DNA of 64,000 nucleotides from Myxococcota bacterium (lineage in GTDB: Bacteria; Myxococcota; UBA727; VGSZ01), in contig JBIKRQ010000001.1 in assembly GCA_044349155.1 (NCBI GenBank), forward strand, positions 6,418 to 70,417, in the 5' to 3' direction. Continued below: a report on this DNA, generated by a model with database tools. The stretch is not shown here.

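Follow-up and report, generated by a model that had tools for sequence, protein, structure and literature searches.

A 23-residue tandem repeat closes the giant protein

The giant ORF (23976..53726; all features described here lie on the forward strand) is 9,916 aa long when read from its first TTG, and the ORF list, N-terminal translation and Pfam matches identify its product as a secreted array of Ig-like repeats. Most of the body was assigned by Pfam to the Ig-like domains Big_7, TIG and Big_5, with LVIVD as a weak additional match. The true start probably lies ~60–70 codons past the first TTG, ahead of a Sec-type signal peptide (...TTIVAVLCCFSSATSA/EP).

The translated last 1,008 codons contained every C-terminal element listed in the sequence-only reading: the Cys-framed loops, the DxDxDG runs, four repeats, a C-x10-C motif and the TAA stop. 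The four tandem units (53409..53681), of the form QPT[VI]VRF-x9-G[TS]F-x4, begin at 53409, 53478, 53547 and 53616, giving a period of exactly 23 aa. BLOSUM autocorrelation at this period reached z = 16, a value attained by none of 1000 shuffles, and each unit is predicted to form a strand, a loop and a second strand. Ahead of them lies a linker, SSPNLAASYPSGFVAAND (53355..53408), in the same position as the "GSxPLxPxSxP" linker of distant tail proteins. Behind them, the terminal C-x10-C loop VCVNGSNLDGLQCK (53682–53723) and the TAA stop complete the gene (53682..53726). The units are 55–70% identical to one another in protein and 64–73% in DNA, and Tandem Repeats Finder detected no DNA array there, which together indicate an old repeat rather than a recent duplication. 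GC content in the last 300 nt was lower than in the ORF as a whole, as had been pointed out, but the drop was modest (0.603 versus 0.666). When the last 258 aa were modeled by AF2 from the single sequence, pLDDT was 42, and the model is usable for strand positions only; each QPTVVRF core received a strand, as did three of the four G[TS]F cores.

The tail is conserved among orthologues

A word-indexed search of 5.8 billion proteins with the tail alone yielded no match, and a PHROGs search returned nothing relevant. Exhaustive phmmer of the tail against 1.84 billion representatives detected one true relative, protein P0121, whose tail is 85% identical to that in the window and whose terminal loop is identical. 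The same search returned weak repeat proteins (P0122–P0126) with neither a Pfam family nor an informative context. Scans of metagenome contigs, with the tail and with the downstream Gly-rich protein as queries, gave no match.

Further orthologous tails were obtained from contigs reached via the neighboring gene (loci L034, L028, L033 and L025). Three units were present in L034 (end, PPVCVNGSNVNGSHCK), in L033, where they are of the QPVVVRI type (end, PPACVNGTSRDGLMCTQPAP), and in L025 (end, PPVCINGTTSNGTMCTKP); the L028 tail is a fragment with an end identical to that of the window. In L025, all three Cys-framed loops, Big_5 and TSP3 are retained as well, within a giant gene called at 10,001 aa. 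The terminal loop, identical in P0121 and L028, reads PP[VA]C[VI]NG[ST]xxxGxxC in L025, L033 and L034. Absence of the tail from orthologues had been named as the outcome that would count against the sequence-only reading; the tail was kept in P0121 and in all four loci. Its dN/dS was 0.21 against L034 and 0.18 against L028 at dS ~1; the downstream gene gave 0.15 and the TSP3 region 0.36. The tail is therefore under purifying selection, and its existence, periodicity and conservation are direct observations.

The downstream gene encodes a secreted Gly-rich protein

A 398-aa ORF (53739..54935) begins twelve bases past the TAA, behind a 12-nt spacer (53727..53738) that carries an AGGAG ribosome-binding site. 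It is followed by a peptidyl-prolyl isomerase of the PpiC (parvulin) type, which carries a lipoprotein signal (LAAVGC; 54926..55657; Pfam Rotamase_3, Rotamase and Rotamase_2), and then by another giant open frame, at least 2,791 aa long, which leaves the window (55627..64000). According to Pfam and its translation, the latter combines a signal peptide and numerous TSP3 repeats with Glucodextran_B, CarboxypepD_reg, Big_5 and the RHS-associated domain DUF6531. The order of tail protein, Gly-rich protein, PpiC rotamase and large protein was the same in the window and in all close orthologous contigs, and the isomerase next to the pair is specific to the window clade.

We checked, as had been suggested, whether the Gly-rich protein co-occurs with the tail. 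In each orthologous locus, its gene lay 12–14 nt past the stop of the tail protein and had a ribosome-binding site. No promoter-like or terminator-like site was found within 53300–55800, which points to co-transcription of the tail gene and its partner. The two genes are thus tightly coupled in an operon. The partner is in frame with the giant protein in the window, in L025 and in the contig of homologous protein P0001 but not in L028, L033 or L034, and a stop-codon read-through fusion was rejected as a conserved feature.

Family searches showed that the partner is homologous to a Gly-rich family of at least 968 members of ~390 aa, none of which has a Pfam domain. Close matches ranged from E = 7e-144 to 1e-70, and Verrucomicrobial matches lay around 1e-40 at 80–99% coverage. 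In the partner itself, a short N-terminus resembling a signal precedes a beta-helix-like domain that contains long Gly-rich segments, and an Ig-like sandwich forms the C-terminus. In the alignment of the family (A1), the corresponding order is a signal peptide, complete in most members, an N-terminal GSTGADG, beta-helix rungs of the NTPVYLLATGDVTI type, Gly-rich stretches (GGxGGPGGFDGG, PLVGGSGGGG and GGGGGGGAILIAS) and an Ig-like C-terminus. AF2 modeling with A1 was confident (pLDDT 84, pTM 0.83). A Foldseek search of this model against the PDB gave no match below E = 0.1, a profile search of the PDB with the family retrieved Gly-Ser linkers only, BFVD returned only low-TM Gly-rich proteins, and PHROGs returned nothing. 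The partner has no membrane anchor, no catalytic-looking invariant residues except Gly, and no match to a sorting enzyme family.

In A1, C179 and C238 are both missing from protein P0006, and C348 and C397 always occur together. This covariation suggests that the four Cys of the partner in the window clade form two intramolecular disulfides. A disulfide linking the tail to the partner was also weighed and set aside: the covariation fits two intramolecular pairs, which leaves the tail its own C-x10-C loop. The extra Cys of the partner and the terminal Cys loop of the tail were found in the window clade and were absent elsewhere.

The tail–partner pair recurs in distant phyla

A scan of species-representative genomes with A1, in which poly-Gly patterns were used, yielded at least 24 loci; the source genome and its close relatives were not among them. 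A tail protein was encoded directly upstream of the Gly-rich gene in 11 of the 24 loci listed, belonging to Lysobacterales (L001), Verrucomicrobiota (L002, L003, L008, L019, L020, L021, L023 and L024), Sumerlaeota (L018) and Methylomirabilota (L022). When the contigs of five more full-length homologues (P0018, P0013, P0039, P0091 and P0009) were inspected, all five showed, directly upstream, a protein ending in DxDxDG repeats and then a short-repeat tail. The upstream proteins of the distant loci end in TSP3- or dockerin-type DxDxDG repeats, often then the "GSxPLxPxSxP" linker, and finally 3–14 tandem units of 19–25 aa that run to the C-terminus. Examples of units are "GLTLARPPVAVVLPSAAITGEVPT" (L003), "EAISDEVTVFNS..." (L024), "SFLNAVPGxGxPDTxL" (L019) and "TPRVIRPGFG" (L002). 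The window shares this arrangement of DxDxDG repeats followed by tandem units to the C-terminus.

Periodicity was significant in 15 of 16 tail loci (z = 3.4–24), compared with z < 1 in seven control loci without a tail; in L035, repeats were visible but their periodicity was not significant. The DxDxDG motif ended 100–290 aa before the C-terminus in all 19 tail proteins analyzed (133 aa in the window). Ca-repeats followed by a C-terminal tandem-repeat tail, directly upstream of a gene of the Gly-rich family, thus recur across phyla. Family members without an upstream tail protein also exist (L004, L014 and L017), and Proteobacterial relatives, which have only the N-terminal 100 aa in common with the family, follow TIG-ended proteins instead.

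The cargo ahead of the tail ranged from ~100 aa to ~9,800 aa. At one end were proteins made up of a signal peptide and dockerin only (~260–400 aa in total), and at the other were LVIVD/Big_7/Big_5 arrays, with ~10,000 aa ahead of the tail in the window and L025. Because the cargo varies while the tail-plus-partner pair stays constant, the pair shows the behavior expected of a portable docking module. As a side observation on the surface-assembly system that we tentatively propose below, its cargo would extend from 300-aa dockerin proteins to 10,000-aa Ig fibers.

A conserved third gene downstream of the pair was sought across the loci, and none was found. The genes after the pair vary (caspase/cohesin, DUF5122/lectin, RHS, cadherin, HpiC1-like, GSDH and ferredoxin), so the minimal conserved unit is the pair itself. 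Frequent neighbors were RHS/YD giants (window, L004, L031, L036 and L037) and cohesin or dockerin proteins (L003, L018, L029, L035 and L036). We also note that the candidate system would span Verrucomicrobiota, Myxococcota-like bacteria, Lysobacterales, Sumerlaeota and Methylomirabilota, often beside RHS toxins and cohesin scaffolds.

At the level of single units, homology between lineages was not detected. An HMM of the Verrucomicrobial units ("GLTLARPPVxVxLP") did not match the window tail, and hhalign of window-clade against Verrucomicrobial units scored 4.7, the same as column-shuffled controls. The visual likeness of "AQPTVV" to "AQPPV" was discarded as evidence of homology. Equivalence of the tails across phyla is therefore judged from their position and period, from the homology of the domains before them (Big_7/Big_5/TSP3) and from that of the gene downstream. 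Its simplest reading is a fast-evolving repeat homogenized within each lineage, although the tandem repeats may have arisen independently in different lineages.

Calcium-binding elements ahead of the tail

The region preceding the tail opens with PPC-like domain A (51321..51665; aa 9116–9230, RSCPDR...TRTAE), a putative domain recognized from its sequence pattern and conserved in L025. Motif searches then located Cys-framed Ca-loop 1 (CGDGLDNDSDGEADFPREPGC, 51666..51728), also conserved in L025, and loop 2 (CSDGNDNDNDGHTDFGSDPSC, 51777..51839), which aligns to repeated loops in protein P0130. PPC-like domain B with a Cys-rich connector (51870..52340; aa 9299–9455) separates these from loop 3 (CNDGKDNDLDGLTDSPNDPGC, 52341..52403), found by the same search and conserved in P0121 and L025. 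A Big_5 Ig-like domain follows (52701..53027; PF13205, E = 3.2e-5, 25.0 bits against a cut-off of 23.6, covering profile positions 1–104 of 105). The region ends with Ca-binding repeats of the bacterial TSP3 (thrombospondin type 3) family, in which five DxDxDG motifs lie (53037..53333; PF18884, E = 5.7e-7, 29.7 bits against a cut-off of 25, in three stretches). The three loops are the only copies in the whole giant protein. They had been described as lying inside PPC-like domains; the three motifs were confirmed, but their spacing is 37 and 188 aa, and they border the putative PPC domains instead.

When the last 1,008 aa were scanned, the Pfam PPC profile (PF04151) gave no match at E ≤ 1. Residues 9109–9595 matched proteins P0130–P0135 (E = 1.8e-35 to 3.9e-28), in which Cys-framed loops alternate with domains that Pfam names PPC or GBD_T9SS_assoc. 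The Pfam PPC domain of P0130 (residues 418–481) is contained in the stretch that BLASTP aligned with window domain B (E = 2e-19), and by this alignment domain B would be a PPC homologue.

The loops matched the NCBIfam acidic double-disulfide repeat (acid_disulf_rpt, NF033662) in three stretches, best at loop 3, with 16.3 bits against a cut-off of 41 (E = 0.0058), and represent a related motif rather than a member. Their best sequence match in the PDB, again at loop 3, was the C-rich Ca-binding domain of Teneurin-4 (7PLP; phmmer E = 0.6 over 25 residues), a likeness that is not significant and holds at the level of the motif only, not of a teneurin domain. In that domain, six Cys form three disulfides, eight acidic residues provide three Ca sites, and sites I and II are coordinated like thrombospondin type 3 repeats (PMC9058538), whereas the window loops have two Cys each. 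OmpA-domain proteins P0145 and P0146 contain a loop with 57% identity, and bacterial OmpA-like TSP3 repeats with an intra-repeat disulfide are attributed to Dai et al. 2017, as cited in 10.1101/2023.11.21.568195. Disulfide-closed T3 repeats of all three kinds (eukaryotic T3, teneurin 7PLP and OmpA-like) have the same D-x-D-N-D-x-D-G-x-x-D core and Cys framing as the window loops. The thrombospondin signature domain, a T3 wire packed on a C-terminal beta-sandwich globe, likewise places Ca-binding T3-type repeats before an all-beta C-terminal element. Its C-terminus is an L-lectin-like globe, whereas that of the window is a ~100-aa tandem repeat, and any globular partner is separately encoded. 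The block as a whole is of an ordinary, recurrent and already recognizable type, in which disulfide-closed TSP3-type Ca loops separate PPC-like domains.

Discussion

The tail and its Gly-rich partner look like an undescribed, phylogenetically wide two-gene cassette; Pfam, NCBIfam, PHROGs and the literature searched contained no description of it. The sequence-only reading had proposed a novel Ca-dependent anchoring or partner-binding tail. Its novelty and its link to a partner stood, while no evidence emerged for Ca-dependence of the tail itself. In kind, the cassette resembles C-terminal docking or sorting modules with a cognate partner. Our preferred reading, at a probability of roughly 0.45, is that the tail serves to dock the Gly-rich protein. 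This reading is the best supported because the tail is portable across cargo, lies at the extreme C-terminus, is paired one-to-one with the partner gene and is under purifying selection.

Under the docking model, the giant protein would be exported by Sec and form a long stalk of Ig-like repeats. Its C-terminal end would be stiffened by Ca-binding elements, with three disulfide-closed TSP3-type loops flanking two PPC-like domains and then five TSP3 repeats. The last ~105 residues, in which a small disulfide loop closes a run of four strand-loop-strand units of 23 residues, would fold as a short beta-ribbon or beta-solenoid and hold the product of the next gene, a secreted protein of Gly-rich beta-helix and Ig-like domains. 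At the distal (C-terminal) end of the fiber, the two genes would then make up a single functional unit. The lipoprotein PpiC isomerase may help to fold the Pro-containing repeats or the partner, and the neighboring RHS-type giant suggests that the whole cluster may be a cell-surface contact or toxin-display apparatus. Physical binding of tail and partner, the solenoid fold, the role of the isomerase and the link to RHS are all inferred. A short beta-ribbon or solenoid, but not a closed barrel, is compatible with the variable copy number, the 19–25-aa units and a turn that contains Pro. An outer-membrane beta-barrel built from tail repeats had been considered and was rejected on strand length (5–7 residues) and copy number (3–14).

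The nearest parallel to docking is the dockerin–cohesin pair of the cellulosome. As in the tail, short C-terminal tandem repeats of ~22 aa fix variable cargo to a beta-sandwich partner, and the system is Ca-associated; genuine dockerin and cohesin domains even occur in the same gene neighborhoods as the cassette. Dockerins, however, have exactly two repeats with EF-hand-like Ca loops and helices, whereas the tail has 3–14 all-beta units without acidic loops. Their partner is a cohesin, while that of the tail is a Gly-rich beta-helix and Ig protein.

Gene adjacency could also reflect a chaperone or sorting function, or simple co-expression of the two genes. One alternative is a sorting or assembly tag, transiently recognized by a factor (the Gly-rich protein or, in the window clade, the lipoprotein isomerase) that then folds the tail-bearing protein, translocates it across the outer membrane or anchors it, much as C-terminal tags are handled by exosortase, PorU or ushers. 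The position of the tail at the extreme C-terminus behind highly variable cargo, its tight coupling to the next gene, the Sec signals of two proteins that both need a route to the surface and, in the window clade, the isomerase within the operon are all in keeping with this. Known sorting tags (PEP-CTERM/exosortase, MYXO-CTERM, LPXTG/sortase and T9SS CTD/PorU) are likewise portable, C-terminal and linked to a dedicated protein. The tail nevertheless differs from them in having no transmembrane helix, basic end, signature motif or family match. In known sorting systems one enzyme also serves many substrates per genome, whereas here each tail gene has its own adjacent partner, and that partner lacks enzyme-like features, with neither anchor, catalytic-looking residues nor sorting-family match. 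A repeat number of 3 to 14 would also be odd for a recognition tag. We regard a sorting tag as unlikely.

Self-association of the tail appears just as doubtful. Here the units would stack as a cross-beta structure or beta-solenoid that bundles fibers or fixes them to the envelope in the manner of curli, and the Gly-rich protein would be a co-expressed neighbor, a nucleator or a cap. Units of 19–25 aa with two short hydrophobic strands and a variable copy number are typical solenoid rungs, and AF2 placed strands on both conserved cores. The unrelated proteins P0122 (E = 1e-7) and P0123 (E = 3e-6) contain long arrays of similar 22–23-aa units. The curli repeats of CsgA and CsgB (rungs of 19–23 aa) share with the tail the unit length, a two-strand unit (predicted for the tail) and a variable number, and in both cases a separately encoded partner could cap or nucleate the structure. 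However, the tail gave no Pfam or NCBIfam match to Curlin_rpt or to other amyloid repeat families, and its units lack the Ser-x5-Gln-x-Gly-x-Gly-Asn ladder. Only three or four units are present here, very few for a self-templating fiber, and they are appended to a giant protein instead of constituting a subunit of their own. Secretion genes of the CsgG type were not seen, and self-association would leave the near-obligate adjacency to the Gly-rich gene across phyla unexplained.

A functionless, drifting low-complexity extension, or an artifact of reading high-GC DNA, could be argued from the missing family match, the low-confidence structure model and the GC content below that of the rest of the gene, but is effectively refuted by dN/dS ~0.2 at dS ~1, a terminal loop identical in P0121 and L028, an exact 23-aa period with conserved cores and equivalent tails in distant phyla.

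Least probable of all is a divergent form of a known C-terminal signal (MYXO-CTERM, PEP-CTERM, LPXTG, T9SS CTD, T1SS/RTX or dockerin), despite the location at the C-terminus of a giant surface protein beside Ca-binding repeats and the tandem 22-aa repeats of dockerin. Searches of Pfam and NCBIfam with the tail alone matched no MYXO-CTERM, PEP-CTERM, LPXTG, GlyGly-CTERM or T9SS CTD model at E ≤ 1, which upholds the earlier view that the tail is none of the four signals first named. The sequence end, ...FVATPPVCVNGSNLDGLQCK, has neither the hydrophobic span nor the Arg/Lys cluster of CTERM and LPXTG signatures. T1SS/RTX adhesins have GGxGxDxUx nonapeptides, a C-terminal secretion signal and no N-terminal signal peptide. 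The giant protein matched no RTX family, lacks GGxGxD nonapeptides and has a Sec-like signal peptide at its N-terminus, which argues against T1SS. Nor is the tail a dockerin, as it has no Pfam match to type I dockerin (PF00404) and its units have no acidic DxDxDG loops or helices; some distant tail proteins have a separate, genuine Dockerin_1 domain elsewhere in the chain.

Returning to docking, the constant pair, the varying cargo and the RHS, cohesin and dockerin neighbors suggest a modular contact or toxin-display apparatus. More tentatively than docking itself, we propose that the tail and the Gly-rich protein constitute an undescribed surface-assembly system, in which a fast-evolving tandem beta-strand tag behind Ca-binding repeats would be captured by a cognate beta-helix/Ig protein of new fold, loading variable cargo onto a common adaptor or tipping it with one. 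To our knowledge, how giant surface proteins of diderms are finished, anchored and tipped is largely unknown outside T1SS/RTX adhesins and autotransporters. If the proposal is correct, a portable C-terminal tag with a dedicated partner would provide a handle on how such proteins are finished in many uncultured lineages, Verrucomicrobiota and Myxococcota-like MAGs among them. It would also give a role to ~1,000 or more hypothetical proteins whose predicted fold is confident but unmatched.

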